Shown: positions 3,720-55,075 of the stretch, in pieces
Layout of the letters: every line of letters begins with the position of its first letter
Numbering within the stretch: position 1 is the first letter of the stretch
Source of the DNA: an uncultured Bacilli bacterium
GTDB lineage: Bacteria; Bacillota_I; Bacilli_A; RFN20; CAG-449
Direction of reading: 5' to 3'
NCBI GenBank assembly: GCA_947591215.1
Contig: CANQCZ010000001.1
Coordinates: 27,399 to 91,398 of the forward strand
DNA: 64,000 nt
Made by a program: the position numbers and the translations under genes
Notes under the pieces: model-generated
Told to the model about the DNA's origin: nothing
The model's input: only the letters and a program-made list of their open reading frames with translations
Database searches by the model: none

Positions 3720-3720
3720 G

Positions 3721-5945: not shown

Positions 5946-5965
5946 TTAAAAAGGGGGCGACAATC

Positions 5966-32699: not shown

Positions 32700-33093
32700 A
32701 ATACTTCGTAGGAAGTATTTTTAATTTGCTCAGAAAATGGTATTCGAAAGTGAAAAGGGGAATGGGAGTTCAATCAAATAATGTGGTATTGTTTTTTAGA
32801 AGTTTTTTCCTTAAATTCTTTTCAAAAAATAGTAAATATATCTTTAATAGATACATCGTTTTCAAGCTTTTTAGCATAATAACAATTATTAAGTTTTCTT
32901 ACTCATTATAAAATGCTTCTTTACCATAAAAAGAAGCTATTTTAATTGTAATCTAAAAATTGAATGCTAATTCAAGTTCTTATCGATTGTTAAATCGATT
33001 TTGTTCTATAAAAATTTTTACAATTTATTTGTTGCGCCGGCAATTCTATTGATAATAAATTATTGATGTGTATTGTTATTAGGGAAATTAAAT

Positions 33094-33369
33094 ATGATAA
33101 AAAGAGGGAATATAGCAAATTTAGAAAAATTTTCTAATCAAAATATTTTTAAAATTTCTTATGTATTAAAGGTAGTAGATTATGCAACGGGAACGATTTA
33201 TTATTCCGAGTTTTATTATGCTTATGTAAGTAAACAAATAATTACAATGGAAAAAATTTCGGAGCGATTAAATATATCGAATAATACTTTAAAGCAACAC
33301 ATAAAGAAAATTAATAGCATTATAAATGCCGTAGAAACAATTACAGATGATGATTTTATAAAAATATAA
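33094..33369 (+). CDS. Small hypothetical protein with a helix-turn-helix-like segment
   Basis: …MEKISERLNISNNTLKQHIKKIN… resembles an HTH. First gene of the AT-rich island. Confidence 0.4.
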   Translation: MIKRGNIANLEKFSNQNIFKISYVLKVVDYATGTIYYSEFYYAYVSKQIITMEKISERLNISNNTLKQHIKKINSIINAVETITDDDFIKI

Positions 33370-33401
33370 TAAATTTCAAATTTATCATATTTTTGCTTAT
33401 G

Positions 33402-33428
33402 TTACCAGCCCGATTTTATGGCTGGTAA
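33402..33428 (+). terminator. Possible terminator hairpin
   Basis: TTACCAGCC-CGATTTTAT-GGCTGGTAA 9-bp stem. The downstream U-run is weak. Confidence 0.35.
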
Positions 33429-33476
33429 ATAGTATTTAATATTGCTTATCATAAAAGTGTCGAAAGGAGTCGGAAA

Positions 33477-33938
33477 ATGAATCTTGAGGAATTGCAAGAC
33501 TTTAAATTTTATTTATCATTAAGCTTTGTGATAGTGTTATCATCTATACTTACTATCATTACGGTGGAAATTATAAAGCTAATTCTTAAAAAGAAAAAAA
33601 TAATCACCGAAGAAACAGACGCAGATAAAAAAGACCAGTTACTAATTAAAATCGGTCGATTTGTAGCGCTTCTAATTTATACCATAGTATATCTTATAAA
33701 AGAATTTCTTCTTAAGCATGATCTCATATTCAATGAAGCGTTATTTATCGGACTTCTTTCTGGAGGTGCAGTTACCTTAACAGTTGCTAAAGGATTATAT
33801 ACATCCTTTAGACAAAGTCAAAAAAAGAAAAAGGTGTTCGATAAATTAACTGAAGCGGAAAGTAAGTTAGAAGCTTTACAAAAAGAAGCGCTTGAAAAGC
33901 AAACGAAGATAATATTAACCAGAAAGGAGAGGAACTAA
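33477..33938 (+). CDS. Membrane protein (3 TM) with a C-terminal Lys-rich coiled coil; holin-like architecture
   Basis: RBS AAAGGAG upstream. TM segments, then …KVFDKLTEAESKLEALQKEALEKQTK. Confidence 0.5.
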   Translation: MNLEELQDFKFYLSLSFVIVLSSILTIITVEIIKLILKKKKIITEETDADKKDQLLIKIGRFVALLIYTIVYLIKEFLLKHDLIFNEALFIGLLSGGAVTLTVAKGLYTSFRQSQKKKKVFDKLTEAESKLEALQKEALEKQTKIILTRKERN

Positions 33939-33939
33939 C

Positions 33940-34605
33940 GTGAAATTATTAATGTCATCAATTATTGTACCTAAAATACAACTCCAATATATAAGGGATA
34001 GCAATAAAATTTTTAGAGTAATATCTGAAAGCATTGATCCATTATTTAAACAATTGTTATCTGATAAAAGTATTCGTGTGCAAGTATGGTTGGAACGTGA
34101 AGTTAGAAAATTATCTAATTCAAGAATAAAAAGAAGTTGGGTTCATTCATGCGATATGTCAAATAAAAGACCGACCAAGTTATTTACTAACGGAGAGTAT
34201 AATTATGGTGGTGGCAATGGCTGGGGTTGGAAAGGTAATGATGTGCCATCTTATACAACAACGAATGGAATTGTACCAACTGAATTTGAGGTCACATTAT
34301 CAGATATACAAAATGATTTATTAGTTATAAAGTTTCCTGTAGTTGATATATTTAGCAATATTTTAAAAAAGAAAAAAAGTGGCACATCCGCTAAAGATGG
34401 TGATTTGATTGAGGATTTAGCAATTATATCTAGAGGACGAGCCACGTACCAAATTATAAGAGCTAAATTAGTAGTTAATTATGCTGGTAAAGTCATAATG
34501 AGTGAACCAAGTAATTCGATTATGCTTGGGATTCATAGGAAAAAAGACGCTGTCTTTGATTCGAAAAACTTAGAAAGTTTTATAAAGATCGGAAGGTTCA
34601 TTTAG
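33940..34605 (+). CDS. Hypothetical protein (221 aa)
   Basis: GTG start 6 nt after RBS AAAGGAGAGG, adjacent to the previous stop. No recognised family. Confidence 0.5.
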   Translation: MKLLMSSIIVPKIQLQYIRDSNKIFRVISESIDPLFKQLLSDKSIRVQVWLEREVRKLSNSRIKRSWVHSCDMSNKRPTKLFTNGEYNYGGGNGWGWKGNDVPSYTTTNGIVPTEFEVTLSDIQNDLLVIKFPVVDIFSNILKKKKSGTSAKDGDLIEDLAIISRGRATYQIIRAKLVVNYAGKVIMSEPSNSIMLGIHRKKDAVFDSKNLESFIKIGRFI

Positions 34606-34727
34606 TATAAAGAACATTGATTGTTTGTCCATTAGCTCTAATTATTACTATATTCAAGATAGTTTTAATTTTGATATTTGGCAACCTGTCTAAGCCATGG
34701 TGTGAAACGTTCTAATTCTTATACTAT

Positions 34728-34750
34728 AAATCGGAGTTTAAATCCGATTT
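34728..34750 (+). promoter_or_regulatory. Hairpin immediately upstream of the rhs-operon RBS
   Basis: AAATCGGA-GTTTAAA-TCCGATTT stem-loop, 25 nt before ATG 34776. Possible terminator or attenuator separating the upstream three-gene module. Confidence 0.3.
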
Positions 34751-34775
34751 TTAATATTAAGAAAGGAAAATAAAA

Positions 34776-36323
34776 ATGAAATCATTTACACTTAAAGACA
34801 AAACAAATAAAAACATTAATATTGAAACAGCGAAGTTGGATATTGAAAATTCACGTCAAGAAGATATTTCGAAGCGTACGTTATTTGCTAAGCATTTTAT
34901 TAACGATGATGGAACTTACACTATGGAAGTAAGTCCATTCCCAATTCATTATTACGATACTAAAACTAAATCTTATGAAGAGATTGATAATACCCTTGAA
35001 GAATCTAATGGTAAGTTCTCAATTAAAAAAAATAAGATGAAATTATCATTTAATAAAGAAATTAGCGATGATGCTCCATTGTTTAATATCGAAAAAAAAG
35101 GACATCGTTTTCAACTTTTTTATCTTGGTAAAAAAGAGAAGGTTGGAAATAAAGTTTTAAGAAAAGTAAAAGGGAAAACTAAACGTTTTACAAAACAGAT
35201 AAGTAACTTAACTTATGAAGAAATTGAACCAAAAATCGATTTAGAATATAGCGTTCAATACAATAGAATTAAAGAAAACATTATTATTAAAGAACGGCAA
35301 GAAAGCTATGAATTTTCTTTTTTAGTAAATGTAGGGACATTAACTGTCAGTTTAAAAAAAGATGATTCATGTATTGAATTAGTAGATGCACATCAAGAGG
35401 TTCAATATATAATTCCCTCACCGATCATGTTTGATCAAAATAATAATTCTTCTACCGATTTAGGATATGAAATCGAAATAAGTGAAGATGGTAATCTTAT
35501 TTTCACCTTAAAAGCAGATGCTGATTGGATCAATTCTAATGAACGGGCTTTTCCCGTCGTTATTGATCCGCAAGTTGTGATAACAATTGATGATAATAAT
35601 ATCACAAAACATTTTCAGATAAAAAATAATGTTGCTTCAGTAGCGGGTACCAAGGGATATATAGATAATTCATCGTCATCGAATGCATATTTAATTGCTA
35701 TTGATGTAAGTAGTCTCTTATCGACAAAAATATCTTATGCTGAACTGATTTTTGAAAATGCTAATACTATGCCAAATAGTGCGTCGATACAGGCAAAGTA
35801 CTACAATATTAATAATGATGAAGTAAATAGTTCTTCTTTTACGATTAATACATCTAAGGAAAGCAATTTTACAAGTTTCACAGGACCAACATCAGGAAAA
35901 GCCTCACTTATTATGCCGGGAGCTTTAAATAAATGGATAAGCGAAAAAAAACAAATTGGAGCATTATTATTTAGATCGACAGGTTTATATGCTGGTTCAT
36001 ACACTTTTTATCCACCGACATTAAGTATTAAATATACTTTACAAATTTCAGCTCCTAGTTTTTATATCAATTTGAAAAATGATTGTATTACAGAAATCGT
36101 TACTGGCGCTGACGTCGGATTAAGATACGCTGCTAGAGAAAAAGGAGTTTTAACTACTTATGTCGATCAAACAAGTAGTAAAGTTTATCAAATTTTAAAT
36201 ATACAAGACAGGATTTATACGCGAAGAAATAATAACGATTTAGATAATTGGAACGAGTGGGAAAAACATAGTTTACGGGCTAAATTACAAAATGGTAATT
36301 TGTATTTAACAGATGAAGATTAA
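34776..36323 (+). CDS. Hypothetical 515-aa protein co-oriented with, and 15 nt upstream of, the Rhs gene (putative Rhs partner/accessory protein)
   Basis: RBS GAAAGGAAAA upstream. No signal peptide. Beta-rich, Asn/Ser-rich sequence. Tight linkage to rhs suggests an operon. Confidence 0.55.
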   Translation: MKSFTLKDKTNKNINIETAKLDIENSRQEDISKRTLFAKHFINDDGTYTMEVSPFPIHYYDTKTKSYEEIDNTLEESNGKFSIKKNKMKLSFNKEISDDAPLFNIEKKGHRFQLFYLGKKEKVGNKVLRKVKGKTKRFTKQISNLTYEEIEPKIDLEYSVQYNRIKENIIIKERQESYEFSFLVNVGTLTVSLKKDDSCIELVDAHQEVQYIIPSPIMFDQNNNSSTDLGYEIEISEDGNLIFTLKADADWINSNERAFPVVIDPQVVITIDDNNITKHFQIKNNVASVAGTKGYIDNSSSSNAYLIAIDVSSLLSTKISYAELIFENANTMPNSASIQAKYYNINNDEVNSSSFTINTSKESNFTSFTGPTSGKASLIMPGALNKWISEKKQIGALLFRSTGLYAGSYTFYPPTLSIKYTLQISAPSFYINLKNDCITEIVTGADVGLRYAAREKGVLTTYVDQTSSKVYQILNIQDRIYTRRNNNDLDNWNEWEKHSLRAKLQNGNLYLTDED

Positions 36324-36338
36324 TGGAGAAAATAAATA

Positions 36339-39300
36339 ATGGACAAGGATTTTCAAGATATTGAGAGAGTTTTTTATAATGGTAATGAAGTTGAAAGAGT
36401 ATTTTATAATGGTCAAGAAATAGTGAAAAACATCTATTATCGTTTTTCTAATGAAAAAAGCCGCATTGGACAAACTGAATTAAGTTATCAATGTGGGGTA
36501 GGAGAGGCAAAAGTAAATGTTTATACAGGACGCCTATCTTTAATTCATCCGGATATTAATATAGGCGCGGGTAATTTTGAAATCGGGATATCTCATATTT
36601 ACAATAGTTCTTGGTCAACTAAATTTGATAATGTGATGGGAAATGGTTGGAAACTTAATTTACAGCAATATTGTTATCCATATGATGATAACGATGAAGA
36701 AAGACTTCTTGGTTATGAAAAAGGAGATTATGTTTATATAGATGCTGAAGGTTATAAACATCGTTTCGTTATATATAAAGAAAAAGATGGTGTAGCATAT
36801 TATTACGATGATGCAAAAAATAATTTAATCTTAAAGAAAATATCAGAAAGCAAATTAGAGATCAGCAATCCAACAGGCTCTACATTATGCTTTAACAAAG
36901 ATGGTCAATTATATTCTATTGTTTCTCCATACAATACAACTATTGTTAAACATATTGAATACAAGGATGGTAAAATAGATTCTGTATATGATAAACGTAA
37001 CTCAAATCGAGTGCTTTATTTTAAGTATAATAAAGAGGATTTACTAAGTGAAATTAGTTGTGAAGAAAATTCAATTATATTAAAGACATTACATTATTTT
37101 TATGATTCAGATAATAATCTTATTAGAATCACTAAGCAAGTTAATACATCTACTAAGACGGTAGCTTTTTTTAGCTATGATTCAAATGATTTAATTCATA
37201 TAATGGATGGAGAAGATAATTCGGCAATATTATTCTCATATAAAAATTTCGATGATAAATATGTAACTAATGTTAAAATCGGCACAGGTAAAAAAACATT
37301 TTCAAATTCTTCAAAAATTGATTTAAAAGAAATTAAAAATGAAACAAAGTTTGATTATGAATCGACCTCTAATACTTTAGTGACGACTGAAAAGGGAATC
37401 ACATATCTTTATCAATTTAATAAACGTGGATTTACTTCAGCAATTTTTGAAAAAGATGGTCATAATTTACGTACTTTAACAAAGGAAAATGGTTGGTCAT
37501 TAAGCAATGGTAATCAAACTACCTCAATCAATGGAAAACATAGTGAAATTGTATATGGTGAAACTTACTTATTAACTAAAGAAAAATTGTACAATTTTCT
37601 AAATATATTTGCTGGTGCAACTAATTATTCTTATGTTGAAAATTATACGTTATCATTTTGGATTAAATTGAAATCAGTAGTATATAATGATGTTTTGGCA
37701 AGATTAAAGATTATTACTGTTCCAGCTCTTCAAGAAGTAACCTTAAATTTTAAAAGTAGGATTGATCATACAGCTTATGATGTGTGGCAACATGTGACTA
37801 TCCCGATTGATTTCCAATTATTCGAAGCTAATTATGATAATTCTGTGGACTATAGTGAATCTGGAATTCAAAATGAAGTCCCTAAATTAAAGGAAAACAT
37901 AAATGAAATGCGAATTAGCTTAGAAGGTATTCCATTGGATTCCTCTTTTGAAATTGCAGATATTCAAATAGCGGTTGGATCTCAAAATCATTTAGTTATA
38001 GCTGGAAAAAATTTTGAAGATGCCGATTATATTTATTGTTATATTGGTAATAAGTGTGAAAAGAAGGCTATTAATTCAAACTTTTTTATGACTTTGCAAG
38101 ATGTCATTTTAACATATCTTAATATGCATAAATGCGCAAATGAAAATGATAAATTTGATATGGTTGCTTGCGATGGAACAAAAGTAATCGAGGTAAACGC
38201 TATATCGTTTACAACACCTAAATTTAATGAATGTAAGTTTAAATTTTTAGATGATGGTAAACCAAATTTCTATTTAGTATGTAAAAATCGTAGAGCTCAA
38301 AGTCAATGGTTAGTAACCGAAACTGATTTTACATTTCGCAATGATTATATCGAGCAAAGAACTTCGGTTGATGTGATAGAAAAATATTATATTTGTATTG
38401 ATGAAAATAGCAAATCTAGAAATTATAGCTGGTATTTTTACAATGGTTTATTAAAAGCTCAAAAAGACGCATATGGAGTAATCACTGAAAATAAATATGA
38501 TGATTATGGAAATCTTATTGAAATAGTTATTTACAATGAAAATGATTCAAATAAACTAATTAGAACTATTACATTTGATGAATTTCAACTTAATGATTCG
38601 AAATTAAGTAAAGTTCAATATCAAATAAATGACAATGGCGTTTTAAGTAAACAAACTTTTAATTTACCATTTTTTCAATTGGATTCTGAGACTGTATTTA
38701 ATGGTGATACGACTTTATATGAAAAATGCTACATATATGATGATATTTTTGGTGACAAATTAACTAAAATATCTGTAAAAAGCGATTTGAAAAAGATTGA
38801 TACGTATTTTAAATATACTGATGAAGGATATTTAAATGATATTTCTGATGATTCTAAAAATCATTATCAGTTTGAGTATGATATTTTTGGAGACATTACC
38901 TCATATAACTTGATTGATGAAGATAATAATGTTACTGAATTATTGCAAAAAGAAAATATAAACTATGATAATCATTTCGAGGCCATTATCGAAAAATATC
39001 CATCGGATAATTCATCATTCACTAGAGAGTATTTGTATGATCAATATAATAGACTTACATCGATTCGCGAAAATGAAGAACATATTAAATTTGATTATGA
39101 ATCAAACGAAGAAAGCCGGATGTTGGCTCAAGTAGAATATATTGATGACCCGTATACAAAACAAAAAAATGTTATTAAGTATGATTCAAATACTGGATTA
39201 TATACGTATAGTACAATTAATGAAGAGAGTAGTACTAGTAATCAAGGTTTATCAATCGTTCAAATTGGACAAAATAAAACAAAATATATATTATGTGATG

Positions 39301-41066
39301 GAGAAAACAAAACTGAGCGAATCAGTGAATTTATTTATGATGATAATGAAGAAATAGAAAACAAAATATATCTTAACCCACGTCTTGCAAAGACTAAAGA
39401 TTACCTAGTCGATAATGAATCTGAAGAATTTAATTTTTCGTATGAATGGGATGGATTAGGTAGATTAAAAAAACAACAATATTCTGATGAAACTAAATTT
39501 TATGAATATTCCTATAATGATTGTGGAAGAATCAATAAAGTTGAATTTCATTTTAATGAGAATAATTTTGTTTTTCAATATACATACGATTCTATAGGTA
39601 ATATAAAAACTATCAAGGAAAATATCAATAATGATAATAAAATAGAATATACTTATGATTCATTTAATCAATTATTATCAGAAGTTAATTCAAAATTAGG
39701 TATTAATAATAAATATACTTATGATTCTAAAGGAAGATTATATGAAATTAATATAAATAATTCTACAAAGAAAATTTTCAATTACCATAGTAAAGGTAGG
39801 CTAATAGAACTACAATCCGGTAATACGACCTATAAGTATACCTATACATCAAATGGTAATTTAGAAAAAATATATATAAATCAACTAGATACGCTAGATA
39901 CATTAGAGCATGTATTGATATGGGAAAGACATAGTTTACTTAAAGAATACGATAAAAATCAGTATTTCTATAATTATCAAGGAATAAGATATAAAAAGAT
40001 TGTTAATGGAATAACTAAATTCTATTATCTAAGTGGTGAAAAAATTTTAGGTGAAGATTGGTCAAATGGAATTAAAATACGTTATTTCTATGATGCAAAT
40101 GGTATTGCAGGTTTTACATATAAAGGAAAAACATATCATTACATAAAAGATATACAACAAAATATCAGAGCAATTCAAAAAGAATGTGATATAATATGTA
40201 CATACGAATATGATGCTTATGGGAATTGTTATACAGCAACTTATGAAGACATTGATGATATTGCCACCATAAATCCATTTAGATATCGTGGATACTATTT
40301 TGATGTGGAGACAGGACTATATTATTGCAACTCTAGGTATTATTCACCAGAACTATGTAGATGGCTTACACCTGATTCAATTGAATATTTAGACCCTGAA
40401 TCTATTAATGGCTTAAATCTATATTGTTATTGTTATAATAATCCAGTAATGTACGCAGATCCTAGTGGACATTTACCAGAATGGGCTTGGAAATTAATTA
40501 TTGGTACAAGTTTCATTTTAGTTGGTGCATTGGTTACAGCAGCTACTGCAGGAGCAGGAGCAACTTTTTGGGCAACCTTTGGTTCAGCATTATTAACATC
40601 AACTATTCAAACTGGAATAAGTGCTGCTGTTAGTGCTAGCCTTGGTTTTATTGTTGGAGGTATTTCCACTGGTACGTTGGAAGGTGCTTTTACTGGAATG
40701 ATTGATGGTACGGTTGATGGTTATATGTGGGGAGGTATTATTTCTGGCGGTTCGCAAATTCTAAGTGGTTTAATGAAAGTTGGAAATGGTATATCTTCTG
40801 GTAGGATTGAGGCATTGTATAAGTCTGAAAATTCAACAACATTATTTAATTATAATAATGCTGCTGGAAAGAGTAAATTCAGAATAGATGTCGCTAAAGG
40901 TAAAGTTAAATATCCCGGTGGCAAAACAGGTTTCTTGAGTGGGAAAGAACTATATGGGTTACATTACCATTTTGGTAAAACTAATTCTCTAAGGGAACTA
41001 CATAGATTCTTTACTCCTGGTGTTGTTAATGGATTTATTTCTTCTTTGTTAGATTATTTATTTTAA
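36339..41066 (+). CDS. Rhs/YD-repeat polymorphic toxin: Rhs core ending in …YCYNNPVMYADPSGH, then a roughly 197-aa variable C-terminal toxin domain
   Basis: Multiple YD repeats (YTYDSIGNI, YTYDSFNQL, YTYDSKGRLYE, YEYDAYGNCY), the RHS repeat-associated core (…FRYRGYYFDVETGLYYCNSRYYSPELCRWLTPDSI…) and a DPxG-type cleavage motif (ADPSGH) at aa 1373-1378. The sequence downstream of that point is unrelated among the five copies. Confidence 0.9.
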   Translation: MDKDFQDIERVFYNGNEVERVFYNGQEIVKNIYYRFSNEKSRIGQTELSYQCGVGEAKVNVYTGRLSLIHPDINIGAGNFEIGISHIYNSSWSTKFDNVMGNGWKLNLQQYCYPYDDNDEERLLGYEKGDYVYIDAEGYKHRFVIYKEKDGVAYYYDDAKNNLILKKISESKLEISNPTGSTLCFNKDGQLYSIVSPYNTTIVKHIEYKDGKIDSVYDKRNSNRVLYFKYNKEDLLSEISCEENSIILKTLHYFYDSDNNLIRITKQVNTSTKTVAFFSYDSNDLIHIMDGEDNSAILFSYKNFDDKYVTNVKIGTGKKTFSNSSKIDLKEIKNETKFDYESTSNTLVTTEKGITYLYQFNKRGFTSAIFEKDGHNLRTLTKENGWSLSNGNQTTSINGKHSEIVYGETYLLTKEKLYNFLNIFAGATNYSYVENYTLSFWIKLKSVVYNDVLARLKIITVPALQEVTLNFKSRIDHTAYDVWQHVTIPIDFQLFEANYDNSVDYSESGIQNEVPKLKENINEMRISLEGIPLDSSFEIADIQIAVGSQNHLVIAGKNFEDADYIYCYIGNKCEKKAINSNFFMTLQDVILTYLNMHKCANENDKFDMVACDGTKVIEVNAISFTTPKFNECKFKFLDDGKPNFYLVCKNRRAQSQWLVTETDFTFRNDYIEQRTSVDVIEKYYICIDENSKSRNYSWYFYNGLLKAQKDAYGVITENKYDDYGNLIEIVIYNENDSNKLIRTITFDEFQLNDSKLSKVQYQINDNGVLSKQTFNLPFFQLDSETVFNGDTTLYEKCYIYDDIFGDKLTKISVKSDLKKIDTYFKYTDEGYLNDISDDSKNHYQFEYDIFGDITSYNLIDEDNNVTELLQKENINYDNHFEAIIEKYPSDNSSFTREYLYDQYNRLTSIRENEEHIKFDYESNEESRMLAQVEYIDDPYTKQKNVIKYDSNTGLYTYSTINEESSTSNQGLSIVQIGQNKTKYILCDGENKTERISEFIYDDNEEIENKIYLNPRLAKTKDYLVDNESEEFNFSYEWDGLGRLKKQQYSDETKFYEYSYNDCGRINKVEFHFNENNFVFQYTYDSIGNIKTIKENINNDNKIEYTYDSFNQLLSEVNSKLGINNKYTYDSKGRLYEININNSTKKIFNYHSKGRLIELQSGNTTYKYTYTSNGNLEKIYINQLDTLDTLEHVLIWERHSLLKEYDKNQYFYNYQGIRYKKIVNGITKFYYLSGEKILGEDWSNGIKIRYFYDANGIAGFTYKGKTYHYIKDIQQNIRAIQKECDIICTYEYDAYGNCYTATYEDIDDIATINPFRYRGYYFDVETGLYYCNSRYYSPELCRWLTPDSIEYLDPESINGLNLYCYCYNNPVMYADPSGHLPEWAWKLIIGTSFILVGALVTAATAGAGATFWATFGSALLTSTIQTGISAAVSASLGFIVGGISTGTLEGAFTGMIDGTVDGYMWGGIISGGSQILSGLMKVGNGISSGRIEALYKSENSTTLFNYNNAAGKSKFRIDVAKGKVKYPGGKTGFLSGKELYGLHYHFGKTNSLRELHRFFTPGVVNGFISSLLDYLF
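40308..40472 (+). repeat. rhs core-end repeat, master copy (inside rhs)
   Basis: About 162 nt encoding ETGLYYCNSRYYSPELCRWLTPDSIEYLDPESINGLNLYCYCYNNPVMYADPSGH. It is repeated four more times downstream at about 93 % identity. Confidence 0.9.
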
Positions 41067-41081
41067 TTATTGGGTGATATT

Positions 41082-41417
41082 ATGAGAATTGAATCTTTAA
41101 AGCAACTTTATGAGATAATATTAAAAAAAATGCCGAGTTATAAGATAGTGTTAAATGAAAGCAATTTAATTATTGAAAATTCGGCGAATCACTTTATTAA
41201 AATAGTTTTTAACCATGGTTTCTTTGATGTTTATATTGATAATTTTCATTATTATGATGTTGATACGTGGGATATAGAAGACACTATCGAGTCTATTATG
41301 ACAGAAGAATACATTTTATTTAAGAATAATACAGTTTATACTTTATCGCAAAAACAATACGAAAAAGTTATAAAAAAAGATAAGAAGGCATGTATAATTA
41401 AATTTAATAATGATTAA
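41082..41417 (+). CDS. Candidate immunity protein for the main Rhs C-terminal toxin
   Basis: Small ORF starting 16 nt after the rhs stop and co-oriented. No family recognised. Position is typical of Rhs immunity genes. Confidence 0.5.
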   Translation: MRIESLKQLYEIILKKMPSYKIVLNESNLIIENSANHFIKIVFNHGFFDVYIDNFHYYDVDTWDIEDTIESIMTEEYILFKNNTVYTLSQKQYEKVIKKDKKACIIKFNND

Positions 41418-41616
41418 TATTTATGATGTGTCATTTCCTTATAAAATAGAAAAAATCAATAGTGGATGGGTTTATTGTAGGTAGGTTCTATGGTAGAGCA
41501 ATTAAAAAGAGTTTTAAATAGTGTTAAAGAAGAGATAAAAGTGAAAATTTCATTTGGGATAAAGAAAAAATAATTTCTGTTGCGAAACCTAAAAATGGAA
41601 GAATTATAGTCCAGTC

Positions 41617-41931
41617 GAAACAGGACTATATTATTGCAATTCTAGATATTATTCACCAGAACTTTGTAGATGGTTAACACCTGATTCCATTGATTATTTA
41701 GACCCTAAATCTATTAATGGATTAAATCTATATTGTTATTGTTATAATAATCCAGTAATGTACGCTGATCCTAGTGGACATTTTGTGATAACACTGATTG
41801 CAGGTTTAACAATATCGTTTTTAATAGGTGCTATATCGAGTACAATTAGTCAATATGTTCAATATGGTGAAGTAAACTGTCTTCAAGCAGGAGTTGATGG
41901 ATTGTTTGCTTTAGCAAAAAATAGAAAATAG
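41617..41931 (+). other. Orphan rhs C-terminal cassette 2: core-end repeat (41617-41781) fused to a short, probably truncated 50-aa C-terminal domain. No in-frame start upstream of the internal Met.
   Basis: In-frame stop at 41590-92. Then ETGLYYCNSRYYSPELCRWLTPDSIDYLDPKSINGLNLYCYCYNNPVMYADPSGH, followed by FVITLIAGLTISFLIGAISS…AKNRK and a stop at 41929-31. Confidence 0.7.
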
Positions 41932-41980
41932 TGAAAGACTTTCACGAGCAAAATAATTTTATAAAAGGAGGATGTTAAGT

Positions 41981-42430
41981 ATGAAAATATATTATAAATT
42001 AAGTGATAATTATAATCCAAATTATATAGTAAAATATGATGATAACTCTTTTGGAGCTTATGGAGTGTATTTTGATTTTCAAGTTGTATTAACATCAGCT
42101 GGTTCAGTTATTTTAAATTTTGATCTTTATTCAAAGAGATGTGAATCATGTGAAGGATATCTAGCAATTAAAATTAATAAGAAAACTAAATACGAAAATA
42201 TAGATATTGAAAATTATAGTAATGGTGAATTATTAATTGAACTAGATGATTTTGAAAAAGAGGTACCTATGTGTGAATACTTATTAGACGGTAAGTTTAA
42301 ATATGATATTAACAAATCACGAATTTGCATAGGTAATATTAATAGTAACGAAGTTATTATGTTTGGCAAAGGTCAATATGCATCCTTTCAAAATGGCAAA
42401 TTAATTGGTGTAATTATAGATTTAAAATAA
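41981..42430 (+). CDS. Candidate immunity protein of cassette 2
   Basis: RBS AAAGGAGG is 9 nt before ATG 41981. 150 aa, contains CESCEGY. Follows the orphan C-terminal domain. Confidence 0.5.
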   Translation: MKIYYKLSDNYNPNYIVKYDDNSFGAYGVYFDFQVVLTSAGSVILNFDLYSKRCESCEGYLAIKINKKTKYENIDIENYSNGELLIELDDFEKEVPMCEYLLDGKFKYDINKSRICIGNINSNEVIMFGKGQYASFQNGKLIGVIIDLK

Positions 42431-42470
42431 ATAGCAAATTACTTTCACAAGCACAATATGTAAGTTTACT

Positions 42471-43196
42471 GAAACAGGACTATATTATTGCAACTCTAGG
42501 TATTATTCACCAGAACTATGTAGATGGCTAACACCTGATTCAATTGATTATTTAGACCCTAAATCTATTAATGGCTTAAATTTATATTGTTATTGTTATA
42601 ATAATCCTATAATGTACGCAGATCCTAGTGGGCATTTTGGAATATTAGCATTGATTGCAATAACTGGATTTTCAATGCTAATAGGTGGAGCTGTTCAGCT
42701 GATATCAAATGCGATGGCTGGTAAAACTGGAAGTGAATTATGGCACGGAGTTGCAGGAGCGACCTTAGGAACTGGTGCTAATGCCTTAGCATTGTGGTTG
42801 TCACCATTTACGGGCGGAGCATCATTAGCTTTTGCTACAGTAATATCGGCTGGCATTCAAACTGGTGTTGATACGCTTGAAACAATCATCAGAGGTGAAA
42901 AAAATAAATGGATGGCAAACTATTGCTGATTTTGGTATTAATTTTGCAACAATATTTGCAGGCAACTATATAGGTAGCAAATTAATTTCAATAAATTAAG
43001 GATGGTTTCAACCTAAAAAGTTTTTGAGTGTTTTTACAAAATCATATGGTCAAAAAATCTTATTGCAATCATCAATAGGTGCTGGACTATCTGGAATAGT
43101 AAACTTAATAAAAAAATTTGATTTTAATAGACTTGAGTTGAAAGACTTTATTCCAAACATACCTGTTCCAATGATTCCAAATATTTTCGGAGATTA
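42471..43196 (+). pseudogene. Orphan rhs C-terminal cassette 3, disrupted by two frameshifts
   Basis: Core-end repeat 42471-42635 (…MYADPSGH), then a Gly/Ala-rich hydrophobic region. The reading frame breaks at about 42929 (…MANYC stop) and continues in the +1 frame (WQTIADFGINFATIFAGNYIGSKLISIN) and then another frame (GWFQPKKF…PNIFGD stop 43196). Confidence 0.65.
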
Positions 43197-43211
43197 AGGA
43201 GATTAAAAATT

Positions 43212-43598
43212 ATGATTATAAAAGATAAATTAATAAAAGAATATCCATTAACTAAAAAAATAGATTGCTTTTTTGAATGTTTTGAAGTTATAAAAAGAAG
43301 ATATGTTATTTTCTATGATGAAAAAATTAATAAAGAAAATATTAAATCTTTACTTGATGTATTTAATGAAAATACAAATAATAATTTTTCTAAGAAAAAA
43401 ACATTAATTGTTGTTGCATGTACTAATGAACAGTTTAATAAAGAAGATTTATTATTTTTTAATGGTGTAGATACATTTATTGTATATTATTTAATAAATG
43501 AAAATACAAATGAAATTTATTTTAATGATCAAAAGATGTTGTGGTTTAGTATAGATTGGAAAAAAATAATTAAAAAATTTAATGAAATATTAAAATAA
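43212..43598 (+). CDS. Candidate immunity protein of cassette 3
   Basis: RBS AAGGAG upstream. 128-aa Lys/Asn-rich protein with no family. Confidence 0.5.
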   Translation: MIIKDKLIKEYPLTKKIDCFFECFEVIKRRYVIFYDEKINKENIKSLLDVFNENTNNNFSKKKTLIVVACTNEQFNKEDLLFFNGVDTFIVYYLINENTNEIYFNDQKMLWFSIDWKKIIKKFNEILK

Positions 43599-44019
43599 TT
43601 ATCAAATTACTTTCACAAGCAAAATAATTTTATCAAAGATAACGCTATTAACAATTTTATTCATTTAAAACAAATAATTAGAGATATGCTCATAAAAATA
43701 TTAAATATAAACAAAAGAAATAATAATATGATAAAATATAGATGTCTAGTTCTATGCTTTATTTTACGAGAGGTAAAATGAAACAAAAAGAATTATATAA
43801 GACAGCAATATATAACTAGAACTACTGGTATTGCAGCAAAAGCTTTAAAACTATTAGGTCAAAATTTAGTTAAACAATAGAATAAAATGGTTATTGACCA
43901 AGTAGGGAAAAATTTTAGGAAAGCATTATCATTTGGTGGAATAGCATTATTATTTGGAACTGTTTTGGTAAAAGATTACTATACGACTGGATTAATGATA
44001 ATTTCTAGGGGGACTTAAT

Positions 44020-44493
44020 ATGTTAGATAATATTTTGATTATAACAATTTTATTTTCTATAGTATTAAGTTTTTTAATAGTTAAAGTTTGGCGAAAAAAA
44101 CACTTTGTAAAATCGTTATACATTGATCAAGGCGTTTCAATAACATTTTATGTCATTGCGCTTGCTTTCACAATTGTCTTACTAACAATATATTACATAC
44201 AAGCATATAATTGGTTGTTTTTGCTAATGCTATTATTATATGATTTATGTTCATTATTTATATTTTGCATTTTAACAACTACTTGTATTTATTTAAAAGA
44301 TAACGTTGTGATTAAAAAAAATATTTTTATTACAAAAAAAATATTGCTTAATAAAGAAACGAAAATAATCGAAAAAGCAACCAAAACAATTATTAAATCT
44401 AAAAATAAATCCATTTCTATTAGTTCAAGACATTTAAATGGAAGTATAAGAAGGTTTATATATGATATTAAGATAATAATTAATGAGTCATAA
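44020..44493 (+). CDS. Membrane protein (4 TM), possible orphan membrane immunity protein
   Basis: RBS AGGGGGA upstream. Hydrophobic. Sits between cassettes 3 and 4. Confidence 0.45.
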   Translation: MLDNILIITILFSIVLSFLIVKVWRKKHFVKSLYIDQGVSITFYVIALAFTIVLLTIYYIQAYNWLFLLMLLLYDLCSLFIFCILTTTCIYLKDNVVIKKNIFITKKILLNKETKIIEKATKTIIKSKNKSISISSRHLNGSIRRFIYDIKIIINES

Positions 44494-44535
44494 TAAGATA
44501 ATAAAGTCGAATAGCATTATATTAGATTTTTTTAC

Positions 44536-45191
44536 GTTACTATTCACTAGAACTATGTAGATGGATTACACCTGATTCAATTGATTATTTAGATCCAGAA
44601 TCTATTAATGGCTTAAATCTATATTGTTATTGTTATAATAATCCAGTAATGTACGCTGATCCTAGTGGACATTTTGCAATTAGTTTAACATTACTTGGAT
44701 TAATTGTTGGAGCCGTGGTTGGAGCAACAATAGGAGGAATCGCTGCTTATAATATTGCAAAGGATCATGGTGCTGAAGGATGGGAATTATTTGGATGGAC
44801 TATGGCAGGTATAGTTGGAGGAGGTATAATTGGTGGCGCTTTAGGTGCGGGAATTGGAGCGATTGTTACAAAAGTGACTGGAGTTATAGGTTTATCAATA
44901 ACGAAATATTCTATTATACCAATTAAAGGTACAACAATTTTAGGAGATATGCCTGGATATATTGGAGCAGCACAAGCAACGGGTTTAGGATATTATTTAA
45001 TTTCAAATAAATTGTGGGAAAACTTAGATGCAACTCAACGCTGGCTTAACAATATGCAATATATTAAAGATGCTAATACATTAGGATCTCAATTTGCGTT
45101 GGTTCCTGATTTTGTGGTTAAAGCAGGCACAACATTATGGCAGGAAATACAATATTTAATTGAAAACGGCATTCCTTGGATATTATTCTAA
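44536..45191 (+). other. Orphan rhs C-terminal cassette 4: 5'-truncated core-end repeat (44536-44672, starting at RYYSLELCRW) plus a roughly 170-aa C-terminal domain
   Basis: …NPVMYADPSGH, then FAISLTLLGLIVGAVVGATIGGIAAYNIA… (Gly-zipper hydrophobic segment), then a variable domain. Upstream in-frame stop; the only Met is the internal MYADPSGH. Confidence 0.7.
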
Positions 45192-45218
45192 AAACAATTT
45201 GGAGGGTAAGTAATAATT

Positions 45219-45518
45219 ATGTATAATAATTTACTTTATAAGACATTTGATAAAAAATATAAAGAAAAATACAATAAATTTTTATTGTTGTGTAATAAAT
45301 ATAATGCAAAAATTATTAAATTTGATTATTACAAAAAAGTATTTGGAAATTTTGTAATTGAGATAGAATATAACGAAAAACATCACATAATTATAACGGA
45401 TAGAGGAGACATAATTTTTAATGGAAAATATATATGTGATAACTCGTATCTTAGTACAGGACAAGACACATTTAATAAATTACTTGAGATGATAGAAAAA
45501 AATCTGTTTAACAAATAA
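45219..45518 (+). CDS. Candidate immunity protein of cassette 4
   Basis: RBS GGAGGG upstream. 99 aa. Confidence 0.5.
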   Translation: MYNNLLYKTFDKKYKEKYNKFLLLCNKYNAKIIKFDYYKKVFGNFVIEIEYNEKHHIIITDRGDIIFNGKYICDNSYLSTGQDTFNKLLEMIEKNLFNK

Positions 45519-45685
45519 ATCACATATTGGTAAAATAAAAATTTTGATTATAGAAATCTAAATTTAAAAAACAACAAAAATAATTTAAAAAAATGAATAG
45601 TTAGCAAATTACTTTCACAAGCAAAATAATTTTATTAAAATTAACTTTATTAACAAATTTATTAGTTAAAATAAAAATTAATTAT

Positions 45686-46510
45686 GATGTTGAAACAGGA
45701 CTATACTATTGCAACTCTAGGTACTATTCACCAGAATTTTGTAGATGGATTACACCTGATTCAATTGAATATTTAGACCCTGAAAGTATTAATGGCTTAA
45801 ATCTATATTGTTATTGTTATAATAATCCTATAATGTACGCAAATCCTAGTGGACATGCTCCTTGGTGGAGTTGGGCATTATCAGGATTACAATTAGTAGC
45901 AGGAGTTGCATTATGCTTTGTTCCAGGCATGCAAGGATTAGGTGTTTCATTAGCAATTGGCGGTGCAACTGGATTAATTATGAATGTGTTAGAGCCACAA
46001 TTAGCTCAAGCAATTGGAGGAGTAGGATCTATGGCAAATGGCTATGGCGCCATTTCTACAGGTATTAGTTTGATGAGCTTAGGTGGATGGGTAGTAGTTG
46101 CTGGTTTGTGCTTAACAGTAATTGGTTTTGGAACAATGGCTTTTGGTGCAAACGAGGTTATAGATGCTATGACTGATACAAATTACATTCAAAAGTGGAC
46201 TGGTATGAGTGATTCGGCATATGCTTGGTCATATTTGGGATTAAACTTTGCATCAAGCATCGGTCAAGCAGCAGGTAATGTGTATCGTTTACATGCTACA
46301 AGAGAAATAAGATTTAATCATAGTGGCACTGAAATTAGAGGATATAGATATCGTGATAGAAAAGGTAATCCATTCTTTGATTTTGATTATCCACATAAAG
46401 ATATACCTTATAATCATTGGCATGGATGGGATGGGCCTAGATTAACTAATAGAACAGGAGATCATTGGAGTTACTTAAGATTAATTTTGTGGATGTTAGG
46501 AGGAATGTAA
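45686..46510 (+). other. Orphan rhs C-terminal cassette 5: core-end repeat (45686-45856) plus a roughly 217-aa C-terminal domain
   Basis: …NYDVETGLYYCNSRYYSPEFCRWITPDSIEYLDPESINGLNLYCYCYNNPIMYANPSGH, then APWWSWALSGLQLVAGVALCFVPG… (hydrophobic Gly-rich segment), then a His/Trp-rich domain (…HWHGWDGP…). Confidence 0.7.
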
Positions 46511-46864
46511 ATGAAATTAAAACGTAAATTTAAACATAATTATGGTAGTGACATACTAAATGAAGCTTATGAAAAACTTTTTAATGGAGAACATATGTCC
46601 TATGAGGAATTTGTAATTATGCTTTCAACAAATGATGAACTATATTTTTATTATATTGAAAAAGATGGTGAAAAAGAATATCAAGTTGAACATTGGGGTG
46701 ATGGCACTGTATATATGTGTGTTACTAGATATGAAGATGGTAAAAAGATTCTAGAAAGAAATGAAAAATTTAATTCTATTATTGAACTATTAAATGATTT
46801 TAGAATTGAAGGTAAAAGCATATACGAAATATGGCCAGATGTTATGTTTGCAAAGTCAAGATAA
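46511..46864 (+). CDS. Candidate immunity protein of cassette 5
   Basis: RBS AGGAGGA is 7 nt upstream. ATG immediately follows the cassette-5 stop (TAAATG). Confidence 0.55.
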   Translation: MKLKRKFKHNYGSDILNEAYEKLFNGEHMSYEEFVIMLSTNDELYFYYIEKDGEKEYQVEHWGDGTVYMCVTRYEDGKKILERNEKFNSIIELLNDFRIEGKSIYEIWPDVMFAKSR

Positions 46865-46991
46865 CAAAATAATTATGTTTTAACACAAACTTGCAGGGGT
46901 GTGTCTATTCAATGGAAAATCTTTTATCAGCTCATTAATGATAATCATATATGGTTAAAATGGTTTAGTTATTATTTATAGGAGAAATCAA

Positions 46992-47402
46992 ATGGAATTC
47001 GTTATTTATAAAGAAAATTTTGTTGAAGAATTTCACAAAAACTTTTTACCATTATTTTCAATTAAAAAATTAAAAAAATTAAATTGTTATGCTCCTAACC
47101 ATGGCTATTTATGGAATGCTTGTGAACATAATCTAGTTGAAAATTTAAAGGGCAAAGATGCAATGTTAGCATATGATAATATTGATAAGACAGGTGCAAT
47201 AGAATTTCAATATGATAATGGATTTATGGGTGATGATATTTCAAAACCACTTTCAAAAGAAAATGATAATTCAATAAAAATTCAAAATAATGGTTTGATT
47301 GAATTTTATGTAATTGGTTTAAATTTCTCATGGTGTTATATTGTGACACACGAGCCAGATGGTTGTGGTCCATATTTTATTATTAATAAAAATAAAAGTT
47401 GA
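46992..47402 (+). CDS. Hypothetical protein (136 aa), possible orphan immunity gene
   Basis: RBS AGGAGAAA upstream. Last gene of the AT-rich island. Confidence 0.45.
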   Translation: MEFVIYKENFVEEFHKNFLPLFSIKKLKKLNCYAPNHGYLWNACEHNLVENLKGKDAMLAYDNIDKTGAIEFQYDNGFMGDDISKPLSKENDNSIKIQNNGLIEFYVIGLNFSWCYIVTHEPDGCGPYFIINKNKS

Positions 47403-47422
47403 ATTAAATTATTTAGAATATA

Positions 47423-51631: not shown

Positions 51632-51640
51632 AAAACCAAA

Positions 51641-53779: not shown

Positions 53780-53795
53780 ATTAACTCCTTTTTTG

Positions 53796-53811
53796 TGGAA
53801 ATCGATTTCCA
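53796..53811. promoter_or_regulatory. LacI-type operator, perfect 16-bp palindrome TGGAAATCGATTTCCA, abutting the RBS of the lipoprotein/GH81 operon
   Basis: Self-complementary with a central CG. Two near-identical copies occur at 57201-57216 and 57368-57383, each directly 5' of an RBS. Confidence 0.6.
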
Positions 53812-53903
53812 TACACATTTATATTAACATAAAGCGCTTACAATGTCAAAAATAAAAAAAGGCAAATGCAGGCTTTTTAAATCGAAGTTAAGTGATAAGA
53901 AAA

Positions 53904-54923
53904 TCAATGACTTGGTTTATCGATCGAAGGGGTAAAAATCAACTCGGATTGAATGACCTTAATGCTTTTGGTTTTGTCATGACCTTTATTGTCAATTTGA
54001 TCGATCAATTCTTGCGCCAGTTGTTTGCCTAATAAATCGGTGTTTTGTTTAACCGTGGTAATCGAAGGGTGAATCGATCTTCCGATATCGGTGCCATCAA
54101 AACCGACGACGGAAATATCGTTTGGAACATTTAAACCCATTTCATCTATCGCGGCTAATCCGCCTAAAGAAGAATAATCGTCGGGATATAGGATCGCGGT
54201 TGGAGGATTGCTTTGTTTTAAAATTTTTAAAGTGGCCTCGTGATTGGCATTGACGTTATAATAACCGGTTTCAACAATCATATTGTCATTAAAAGGAATC
54301 GAGTTTTTACTTAAAGCATCTTTAAAACCTCTGATTCTTTCATCGGTGACAATATTTTTTTCGCCGTGTAAAAACACGATATTTTGATGTCCGAGTTCGA
54401 TTAATTTTTTGGTTAATTCAAAGTATTTTTCATAAGAATCGCTAGTTACACCGCATATTTTAGTTCCGATATAGTCAAATCCGACTTTTGGAATTGAAGA
54501 AAGCATCAGCAATTCTTTTACTTCTTCTTTATAATAATTTCCAAAAATCAAAATACCGTCAACTCTTCTTTTTTCGATGTGGCTTAAATAAGAATAAGTT
54601 CCATCTTTGGATTTTGTCTTAGTGAGCAATATTAAATCATAGCCTTCTTTTTGAATTACTTCTTGAAAAGAATTCAATATGTTCATTAAAAGCAATTGAT
54701 TAGTGCCAACGCGGCCGTCTAAAGCGAAGATCACACCGATTGAGTATGATTTTGAAGTACGCAAAGAGCGCGCTGCAGTATTGGGATGGTAACCCATCTC
54801 TTTGGCAACAGCGATAATTTTTTTCTTAGATGCTTCATTGACTCCGTTGTAATTATTTAATGCTTTGCTTACAGTAGCCGGAGCGAAGCCGCTTTTTTTT
54901 GCAATGTCATAAATTGTAGCCAT
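53904..54923 (-). CDS. LacI-family transcriptional regulator
   Basis: N-terminal HTH MATIYDIAKKSGFAPATVSKALNNYNGV…TAARSLRT plus a periplasmic-binding-protein-type sugar-binding domain. Confidence 0.85.
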   Translation of the reverse strand: MATIYDIAKKSGFAPATVSKALNNYNGVNEASKKKIIAVAKEMGYHPNTAARSLRTSKSYSIGVIFALDGRVGTNQLLLMNILNSFQEVIQKEGYDLILLTKTKSKDGTYSYLSHIEKRRVDGILIFGNYYKEEVKELLMLSSIPKVGFDYIGTKICGVTSDSYEKYFELTKKLIELGHQNIVFLHGEKNIVTDERIRGFKDALSKNSIPFNDNMIVETGYYNVNANHEATLKILKQSNPPTAILYPDDYSSLGGLAAIDEMGLNVPNDISVVGFDGTDIGRSIHPSITTVKQNTDLLGKQLAQELIDQIDNKGHDKTKSIKVIQSELIFTPSIDKPSH

Positions 54924-55039
54924 GTAAACTTAACTCCCAAGCATAATTGCTTAATTCATCGCTAATTTAGAATGTTATCATAATCAGTTAATGTTTTTCA
55001 ATAACTCTGTATTGTAAAAAGTTGAACATAGGAACAAAA

Positions 55040-55067: not shown

Positions 55068-55075
55068 TAGTATTT

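Follow-up and report, generated by a model that had tools for sequence, protein, structure and literature searches.

A probable Rhs polymorphic-toxin locus with a recombining array of orphan cassettes in the chromosome of an uncultured gut Bacilli bacterium

Organisation of the Rhs locus

Rhs toxins are major weapons in bacterial competition. Here we describe a probable locus of this type in a window of 64,000 nt (the whole stretch of DNA that was analysed, from contig CANQCZ010000001.1), which comes from an uncultured gut bacterium of the class Bacilli. At its centre lies a main Rhs gene, whose product ends in a unique C-terminal region (CT, or tip) with a small open reading frame (ORF) behind it. 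Downstream stand four orphan cassettes, in each of which a copy of the end of the Rhs core runs in frame into a different tip, and upstream lies a module of four genes encoding a helix-turn-helix (HTH) protein, mem153, p221 and p515. Coordinates of the features are collected in Table 1. Other contigs and metagenome stretches that were compared with the window carry L-numbers (L001-L112), two of which, L003 and L020, belong to a sister strain.

A preliminary description of this DNA had reported a 1575-aa Rhs/YD-repeat protein with a genuine core end, and profile searches bear this out. Pfam RHS_repeat matched at an E value of 1.3e-10 (41.8 bits, cutoff 22), the DUF6531 plug was located at residues 58-143 (36510-36767; 26.3 bits, cutoff 24.1) and the Rhs-associated core (NCBIfam TIGR03696, Rhs_assc_core) at residues 1291-1378 (40209-40472; E 5e-22, 78.1 bits, cutoff 32.5); TIGR01643 scored at its threshold. 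The core end, ...NNPVMYADPSGH, could be aligned to solved Rhs and TcC proteins in the PDB by sequence and profile searches. The main copy and orphans 1-3 all have both Asp motifs of the Rhs/TcC self-cleaving protease (...TPDSIEYLDP...NNPVMYADPSGH), a predicted aspartyl autoprotease motif. No existing record of the exact sequence of the main Rhs protein was found. As judged by hydropathy, the N-terminal 70-90 residues of p515 and of the Rhs protein contain no hydrophobic segment that could be a signal peptide, and Pfam searches revealed no wall-anchor domain in either.

Core-end repeats and orphan reading frames

A repeat search returned a single family of five copies, with starts at 40297, 41606, 42460, 44497 and 45681. 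The fourfold recurrence of the ~160-nt core end downstream of the main gene, as first described, therefore stands; the single figure of ~93% identity given for it is replaced by pairwise nucleotide identities of 83-95% across the 166 nt in register and 89-95% across the last 135 nt, and the copy in orphan 3 has lost its 5' end, similarity being recognisable only from ~44538 onwards. Across the first 30 nt past the His codon, identity is only 20-50%, approximately the level of unrelated AT-rich DNA. TIGR03696 matched all four orphan frames (E 3e-11 to 2e-17, 43.7-63.5 bits), which confirms that the repeats encode the Rhs core end in frame. Likewise, no ATG, GTG or TTG occurs in frame in any orphan between the upstream stop and the Met of the motif (V/I)MYA(D/N)PSGH, as had been claimed. 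This Met is itself an in-frame ATG with a Shine-Dalgarno (SD) match of 2/6 in all four copies; the small ORFs downstream of the orphans have SD matches of 5-6/6. Because an upstream start codon is lacking and the Met has an SD match of only 2/6, the orphan frames are unlikely to be translated alone. Each orphan thus combines homology to the 3' end of the core with an in-frame connection to a new CT, and has neither a start codon nor an export region.

The core end of orphan 4 (45839-45856) reads ANPSGH instead of ADPSGH, the form that is found in the sister strain (L020, ~3170). Here Asn replaces the second Asp of the presumed autoprotease, and a fusion that keeps this codon might be unable to cleave itself. 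A separate subclass of core ends without any DPxG motif (...NGLNLYAYANNNPIGIAYSSSNIGG...) was seen in the main Rhs of the sister strain (L003, 14069-14743) and in L031 (147), L027 (929) and L018 (1780), which suggests that such proteins would release their tips by another mechanism, or not at all.

Composition of the cassettes

The claim that there are four CT cassettes, each a core end fused in frame to a different CT and followed by a small ORF, holds for the layout; orphan 1 has turned out to be a stub and orphan 2 a pseudogene. Behind the main tip, the candidate immunity ORF, to which we ascribe a presumed immunity function, more likely starts at ATG 41082 than at TTG 41070. It is followed by an immunity-gene remnant that, as matched by eye, resembles the immunity ORF of a metagenome cassette (L086, MVEQLKRVLNSIEEEIKSENSIWDKEQLISVVKP). 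In L066 and L074, CTs of ~190 aa begin with sequence that matches the orphan 1 stub. Next to this stub, orf152 has a possible start at ATG 41981 with a perfect SD, and its homologues in L095 (75%) and L106 (81%) have the same junction element behind them. The orphan 2 CT has a frameshift near 42898 followed by a stop, with a 57-aa ORF (43024-43197) as its C-terminal remnant; since intact homologues exist in L012 (91% nucleotide identity) and in eight metagenome cassettes, it is regarded as a pseudogene. The membrane protein tm157, which is 100% identical in the sister strain and whose homologue in L005 (78%) stands after an intact CT, is a candidate immunity protein for a lost CT of membrane type. 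CT4 is made up of a conserved hydrophobic pre-toxin module and a ~75-aa toxin domain with the motif FDFDYPH...NHWHGW. The last ORF of the array matches PF14101 over 117 of 139 model positions (E 6e-9, 36.6 bits, cutoff 27), is 99% identical in the sister strain and, judged by its position, is probably an orphan immunity gene.

Table 1 Features of the Rhs locus. Positions are those of the window; blank cells indicate that no separate basis applies.
Feature	Position	Strand	Content	Basis
HTH gene	33073..33369	+	Small helix-turn-helix protein, 98 aa; first gene of module	Weak Pfam HTH_11 and related models
mem153	33477..33938	+	Three hydrophobic segments and a 46-aa charged C-terminal tail (13 K/R, 7 D/E)	Hydropathy
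p221	33940..34605	+	Soluble 221-aa protein; start 2 nt past mem153 stop	
p515	34776..36323	+	515 aa; separate N-terminal partner of Rhs, without signal peptide	
Main Rhs ORF	36339-41066	+	1575 aa	
Rhs shell	36339..40472	+	DUF6531 plug, YD/RHS repeats and Rhs-associated core, ending ...DPESINGLNLYCYCYNNPVMYADPSGH	Pfam, NCBIfam
Core-end repeat copies, in register	40307-40472, 41616-41781, 42470-42635, 44507-44672, 45691-45856	+	166 nt encoding ETGLYYC...PSGH	
Main core-end copy	40307..40472	+	Putative recombination substrate; sister-strain breakpoint at ~40355	
Main CT	40473..41066	+	197 aa; Gly-rich hydrophobic segment (9 GxxxG) and ~90-aa putative toxin domain (FRIDV...GLHYHFG...LHRFF)	
Candidate immunity ORF for main CT	41070..41417	+	115 aa from TTG 41070; weak SD	Position; small soluble ORF
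Immunity-gene remnant	41490..41615	+	5' remnant of another immunity gene (MVEQLKRVLNSVKEEIK...), frameshifted; runs into orphan 1	
Orphan 1	41616..41931	+	Core end (41616-41781) and 49-aa CT stub	
Junction element copy 1	41938..41966	+	ACTTTCACGAGCAAAATAATTTTAT, 1 mismatch	
orf152	41972..42430	+	Immunity-position ORF without intact toxin; junction element on each side	
Junction element copy 2	42435..42453	+	Truncated after ...AAGCA	
Orphan 2	42470..43197	+	Core end (42470-42635) and CT pseudogene	
imm2	43212..43598	+	128 aa; candidate CT2 immunity; SD 5/6	
Junction element copy 3	43603..43637	+		
Orphan CT remnant	43818..43961	+	3' remnant of a further orphan CT, with in-frame stop	75% aa identity to C-terminal end of L005 orphan CT
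tm157	44020..44493	+	Membrane protein	Hydropathy
Orphan 3	44538..45191	+	5'-truncated core end (to 44672) and intact CT3 (172 aa; 8 GxxxG, then ~100-aa domain)	
imm3	45219..45518	+	99 aa	Sister strain 100% identical
Junction element copy 4	45605..45639	+		
Orphan 4	45691..46510	+	Core end (45691-45856, ANPSGH) and intact CT4 (217 aa)	
imm4	46511..46864	+	117 aa; SD within end of CT4, 6/6 match	
DUF4275 ORF	46992..47402	+	136 aa; no toxin beside it	Pfam PF14101

Tip exchange, pairing and decay among related loci

Comparison with the sister strain places a switch of tips inside the core-end repeat. Contig L003 is 97.4% identical to the window across 14 kb, from 26342 to ~40355; beyond this point, ~50 nt into the repeat, it runs into a core end, a tip and a membrane ORF that are unrelated to the window. 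The second sister contig, L020, is 98.6% identical over 43327-44672 and 96.4% over 44947-56034, and between the core end of orphan 3 and the middle of CT3 it has an extra cassette of CT plus immunity gene, so that only the last 81 codons of CT3 are left. In the same contig the orphan 4 CT is frameshifted and imm4 is intact. In addition, tips of one family were found in both main and orphan positions: CT2-like tips terminate Rhs ORFs of 1859 aa (L090), 1066 aa (L067) and at least 1112 aa (L057), and one is an orphan in L092, with ~70% aa identity ahead of the frameshift and 51-64% after it. These observations support the proposal that tips are replaced by recombination; a chimera of this main gene with any of its own orphans was not seen.

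Tips and the small ORFs behind them remain paired in unrelated contigs. CT2-like toxins occur together with imm2 homologues (42-48% aa identity) in at least eight metagenome cassettes, a CT3-like toxin (74%) is paired with an imm3 homologue (46%) in L094, and CT4-like tips co-occur with imm4 in L001 (83/69%), L002 (59/47%), L020 and L094 (57/46%). The array in L094, which belongs to another organism, contains relatives of both CT4/imm4 and CT3/imm3 (1525-2571, 6188-6983), and therefore the same toxin families circulate among gut Bacilli. The stockpiling of immunity genes suggested at the outset also agrees with these data, as the immunity-position ORFs are all intact and have strong SDs, while several toxin parts have decayed, either here or in the sister strain. 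With intact CTs in just two of the four orphans, the array is better described as a reservoir in decay than as a set of four ready spares. Taken together, the patterns match those expected from the rhs model of Salmonella and E. coli (PMC3967940, PMC3150448), and on sequence grounds the locus is a clean natural example, from a gut metagenome, of core-end tip replacement and of toxin decay with immunity retention.

Design of the tips and search for toxin families

Each tip opens with a segment of 75-110 aa that is 39-43% Gly/Ala/Ser and contains hydrophobic stretches and 1-9 GxxxG motifs. In the 61 clusters of CT4 homologues and the 14 clusters of main-tip homologues, this N-terminal segment is conserved and the last 70-90 residues are variable; the tips are therefore seen as bipartite, with a putative membrane-active pre-toxin module ahead of a small toxin. 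By analogy with the glycine zipper of the DNase Tde1, the hydrophobic segment may mediate membrane crossing. No Pfam match between the CT hydrophobic segments and the PT-TG pre-toxin model was obtained, even at E <=10.

Searches of the CTs, immunity candidates and accessory proteins against Pfam, NCBIfam, PHROGs and PADLOC returned only the Rhs parts, weak HTH matches and DUF4275, and searches of PDB sequences with the sequences or profiles of CT4, the main CT, CT3, p221 and p515 matched only the Rhs core end, or nothing. The initial statement that none of the CTs belongs to a known toxin family thus withstood hidden Markov model searches against Pfam, NCBIfam and PHROGs as well as comparison with PDB sequences. 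The structure model of CT4 (predicted local distance difference test (pLDDT) score 87.5) had as its best fold match, a weak one, the DNase PT7(Bc) (PDB 8owu), and the CT4 toxin domain may be a metal-dependent DNase. The model of the main CT was poor (pLDDT 56), and a fold search with it was meaningless. A shared fold of the main CT and CT4, guessed from their 'HxH' motifs, was rejected (hhalign probability 0.8%, no relation), and kinship to DUF4160 was confined to one CT in L004 (E 5e-4, below the cutoff), with none among the CTs of the window. The immunity candidates are mostly small and soluble, which points to cytoplasmic targets; the exception is tm157, the lost partner of which is an all-hydrophobic tip.

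A junction element at the 3' ends of cassettes

An element of 22-26 nt, (A)TAGCAAATTACTTTCACAAGCAAAA, stands after the orphan 1 stub, orf152, imm2 and imm3. On the Rhs strand and right after immunity genes, it was also present in 7 of 35 loci that had been retrieved by Rhs protein similarity, some of the element-bearing loci having core ends only 71-76% identical to those of the window. An exact search with a 22-mer yielded 71 metagenome stretches; as invariance among these is a product of the exact search, conservation of the element rests only on the seven independently found loci. Where there was enough upstream sequence (40 stretches), an Rhs core end lay within 2 kb upstream on the same strand in 31 (median distance 1005 nt) and on the opposite strand in none. 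The 42 cassettes linked to the element fell into 17 unrelated groups, and 20 of 64 core ends were part of long, main-type ORFs. Sites of the element include L001 8482, L005 14514, L012 2341, L013 12019 and 13281, L014 2273, L020 355 and 2951, and L021 12556, together with those in L042-L112.

In most of these loci, the element is followed by a 14-bp hairpin, 6 of the 14 base pairs of which show compensatory changes, and a T-run, a combination that makes an intrinsic terminator; the copies in the window have no hairpin. The simplest reading is that the element marks the normal 3' end of an Rhs operon, in which case each orphan would be a whole former operon end. It could also act as a second homology arm or a regulatory site. 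A role as a promoter was rejected (120 promoter-like matches versus 114 in shuffled sequence, with a -10 region that is not conserved between copies), as was membership of a known RNA family (no Rfam match). Past the terminator, ~45-65 nt beyond the element, a further conserved stretch, ATTTAATCTATATTAATAGATTATTTAATAGAAAAATG, was noted in L064, L069, L076, L081 and many others. A perfect palindrome within it (AATCTAT-ATTA-ATAGATT) could be an operator or a recombinase site.

The upstream module

In four different chromosomal neighbourhoods, mem153, p221, p515 and Rhs follow one another in this order. In the three other contig sets, which have different flanks, identities to the window are 57-62% for mem153, 47-50% for p221, 33-37% for p515 and 29-43% for Rhs, and in L005 and L038/L039 the module is likewise preceded by an HTH homologue (38-44% aa identity). 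The sites recorded are 33073-36323 in the window, 8898-13134 in L036, L038/L039, L040/L041, and 4002-4907 in L005, where the mem153 homologue is directly ahead of a fused Rhs protein of 2179 aa. Homologues of mem153 form 12 clusters. Its resemblance to holins is one of outline only (three hydrophobic segments and a charged tail), and it had no match in Pfam, PHROG, PADLOC or phage sequences; a phage origin of mem153 and p221 was rejected, tblastn having given no matches for either, in the case of mem153 among 50,697 phage records. For p221, which matched no family and no PDB entry, only five representatives were present among 1.84 billion proteins; it is 47-50% identical in L036, L039 and L040 and invariably lies between mem153 and p515. 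p515 had no match in Pfam, NCBIfam or the PDB and is homologous to the N-terminal region of fused Rhs proteins (38% in L005, 27% in L051 and L090). That p515 and Rhs are one interrupted gene was rejected, as two in-frame stops and an SD lie between them and this separation shows 100% conservation in the sister strain.

By hydropathy, none of the module proteins has a signal peptide, and Pfam and NCBIfam searches detected no LXG, WXG100-like or type VII secretion system (T7SS) genes in the 64-kb window or the flanking genes examined. Rhs proteins of Gram-positive bacteria are known to leave the cell by Sec (WapA) or T7SSb (LrhA, PMC10327511). As signatures of both are absent from the window, we tentatively propose, with low confidence, that the module takes part in export or delivery. 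A terminator-like hairpin (AAATCGGAGTTTAAATCCGATTT with a T-rich tail) at 34728-34750, between p221 and p515, suggests that mem153-p221 and p515-Rhs are separate transcription units.

Two further observations concern related Rhs genes. In L013 ('uncultured Mollicutes'; 3144-3820), a phage holin (Phage_holin_5_2, E 4.6e-11) and an XhlA-like protein with transmembrane and coiled-coil regions lie ~0.9 kb upstream of a signal-less Rhs protein of 2270 aa. The Rhs protein joined to the same module in L036 (13145-18532) has PT-HINT/Hint domains, and its tip may be released by a HINT autoprotease.

Genomic setting

The window is chromosomal. RNase J, deformylase and YlbD genes lie on the left side of the Rhs block, and a GH81 glucanase and a LacI-type regulator to its right, with PriA, NusA and IF-2 more distant. 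The block, at ~32.7-47.4 kb, has a G+C content of 25-30%, compared with 33-40% in its surroundings. The boundaries of a mobile element were searched for at its borders and rejected, as no tRNA, integrase or terminal (inverted) repeats were detected. Directly past the block, on the minus strand (47423-57030), are genes for the secreted 1402-aa GH81 glucanase, which has F5/8 type C and Ig-like domains, and, beyond it, for two large proteins of 725 and 576 aa without Pfam match. Elsewhere, a CT4-like orphan cassette at the contig edge of L001 is followed, ~3 kb downstream, by genes for a large serine recombinase and an SLFN/AlbA-HATPase (3851-7005); this neighbourhood may represent a mobile-element context. 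The nearest public sequence is a rabbit-gut metagenome-assembled genome (MAG) labelled 'uncultured Bacilli', and more remote relatives are labelled Anaeroplasmataceae, Coprobacillus, Erysipelotrichaceae and 'Mollicutes'.

Discussion

We conclude, with a probability of about 0.85, that this is a chromosomal Rhs polymorphic-toxin locus with a main gene and a recombining array of orphan cassettes. The overall proposal of toxin-domain replacement and immunity stockpiling was supported in every element that sequence could address. The downstream stack is best read as former or foreign operon ends, each composed of a core end, a tip of its own and an ORF in the immunity position, to which the junction element is added in four places, and the comparisons support its remodelling by homologous recombination in the core-end repeat.

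In the mechanism that we envisage, the shell would enclose the tip and, after export and contact, autoproteolysis would free it. The Gly-rich hydrophobic segment would then aid its passage across the target membrane, and the small C-terminal domain, in CT4 possibly a metal-dependent DNase, would poison the cytoplasm, with each small downstream ORF neutralising its cognate tip. Orphans would stay untranslated alone and would serve as retained immunity genes together with a decaying reservoir of tips, from which a single crossover with the main gene could activate an orphan tip. Export, the least certain step, would probably rely on mem153, p221 and p515.

The locus resembles the main/orphan rhs locus of Salmonella Typhimurium LT2 (Koskiniemi et al. 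2014, PMC3967940) and the orphan modules of Rhs/CDI systems (Poole et al. 2011, PMC3150448) in that a main rhs gene is followed by core-end fragments with alternative tips and their own immunity genes, in that the orphans have no start codons or export signals, and in the exchange of tips via shared core sequence. Unlike in Salmonella, the host is a Gram-positive gut bacterium without type VI secretion system (T6SS) or PAAR context, the array is longer, comprising four orphans, remnants and immunity genes without a toxin, and there is a conserved 3' junction element; moreover, orphan activation has been demonstrated there, whereas here it was not observed. With WapA of Bacillus subtilis and Streptococcus suis, Sec-exported Rhs/YD toxins of Gram-positive bacteria (PMC12704120), it shares YD repeats, polymorphic C-terminal toxins, adjacent immunity genes and a presumed role in interbacterial competition; WapA, however, has a signal peptide and wall-binding regions, whereas p515 and Rhs have neither a hydrophobic N-terminus nor a wall-anchor domain. 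Listeria LrhA, a T7SSb-associated Rhs toxin (PMC10327511), is likewise a signal-less Bacillota protein of ~1600 aa with DUF6531 and Rhs repeats, a downstream immunity gene and upstream accessory genes, but it is encoded beside essC8 with three small WXG100-like partners, whereas the partners here are proteins with three transmembrane segments, of 221 aa and of 515 aa, without WXG100 or LXG. The division of the shell over two adjacent genes recalls the TcB-TcC cocoon of Tc toxins (TcdB2-TccC3, YenB-YenC2), and alignments of the core end with TccC3 and YenC2 have E values of 1e-7 to 1e-10, with tip encapsulation and self-cleavage presumed. Unlike TcB, p515 has no detectable TcB similarity in Pfam or the PDB, the targets are presumably bacteria, and no large TcA-like gene occurs in the window.

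At the level of the tips, PT7(Bc), a polymorphic DNase toxin with the immunity protein PIM7 (PDB 8owu; bioRxiv 10.1101/2021.10.19.465003), resembles the putative CT4 toxin domain in being small (~75 aa) and in standing at the C-terminus of polymorphic toxins from Firmicutes, and CT4 has conserved His and Asp residues; the two share no sequence similarity. The T6SS DNase Tde1 needs a glycine zipper for translocation (PMC10240207) and, by analogy, the tips here have repeated GxxxG motifs N-terminal to the presumed toxic domain, but their segments are longer (75-110 aa), lie between the Rhs cleavage site and the toxin, and match neither PT-TG nor any other model.

Several observations weigh against parts of this interpretation. 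The new main tip of the sister strain is not among the orphans of the window, so orphan-to-main activation in this lineage is inferred rather than seen; half of the orphan tips are already dead; and a crossover upstream of the Asn codon of orphan 4 might create a non-cleaving fusion. The PT7 match of CT4 is below usual significance and without sequence support, and the main tip has no fold assignment and no detectable kinship to CT4. mem153 matches no holin family. The ~800 nt of sequence that could be examined ahead of the p515-type Rhs of L090 showed no mem153 homologue, and the genes for the export machinery could therefore lie elsewhere in the genome. Toxicity, neutralisation, cleavage and export are all predicted properties of this system.

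The decay of the tips raises the question of whether the array could be a pure immunity island, in which selection acts on the small ORFs only and toxin fragments are never reused. Of the orphan 1 tip only a stub is left, and orphan 2 carries a frameshift; the sister strain has a frameshift in orphan 4 and a shortened CT3, yet imm3, imm4, tm157 and DUF4275 are 93-100% conserved there; orf152 and DUF4275 stand without any toxin; and the immunity ORFs have strong SDs. We nevertheless consider this unlikely, as the core-end repeats have stayed in frame at 89-95% identity even beside dead tips, CT3 and CT4 are intact in the window, tips were exchanged at the repeat between strains, the same tip families occupy the main position elsewhere, and activation of an orphan by recombination has been demonstrated experimentally in Salmonella (PMC3967940). 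It is far less probable that the orphan frames yield independent membrane toxins or bacteriocin-like peptides through translation from the Met of MYADPSGH, given that this Met has no proper SD in any of the four copies, that its ATG is merely part of conserved core sequence, that export signals are lacking, and that the frame is broken in several copies with the downstream gene kept. The list of ORFs does include ATG ORFs of 105-225 aa from this Met, many gene-called homologues of 200-230 aa begin there, and hydrophobic tip starts could insert into membranes; many of the short database proteins, however, lie at contig edges caused by the repeat. Breaks at these repeats are frequent in metagenome assemblies (the edge of L001, the end of L003 and the start of L020) and might even hint that the repeats are artefacts of collapsed or chimeric contigs. 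We give this next to no credence: the same cassette order was independently assembled in the sister MAG (L020, 96-99%, orphans 3 and 4), similar main-plus-orphan arrays occur in at least ten other contigs from other studies, and the copies differ from each other by 5-17%.

How the Rhs protein leaves the cell is a separate issue. It is quite possible, at somewhat less than even odds, that a type VIIb or other system encoded elsewhere exports it, with mem153 and p221 serving, for example, in regulation or self-protection. The Listeria toxin, with its DUF6531-plus-Rhs layout, is linked to T7SSb (PMC10327511), mem153 and p221 match nothing known, and both the hairpin that separates p221 from p515 and the L090 locus count in its favour; set against this are the absence of LXG, WXG100-like or T7SS genes from the 64-kb window, the conservation of module order in four unrelated neighbourhoods and the position of mem153 abutting the fused Rhs in L005. 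At the other extreme, HTH-mem153-p221-p515 could be a self-contained, previously undescribed export apparatus for signal-less Rhs proteins in gut Bacilli, with mem153 as a holin-like gate, and the junction element with its terminator a cassette boundary that lets tips be exchanged between species in an integron-like manner by two-sided recombination. This combined proposal is speculative, and we think it rather improbable.

The core arrangement of the locus, a main Rhs gene with a recombining orphan array, is textbook; the split, signal-less Rhs with a conserved accessory module, the bipartite tips and the conserved end-marker of the cassettes are its variant features. The junction element could be used to mine gut genomes for new toxin-immunity pairs. 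The export of signal-less Rhs cocoons from Gram-positive bacteria and the passage of tips across the target membrane are poorly understood. For the former, this locus supplies a compact, conserved set of candidate helper genes; for the latter, its two-part tips, with a hydrophobic segment joined to a small putative toxin, form a recognisable family that is open to direct testing.

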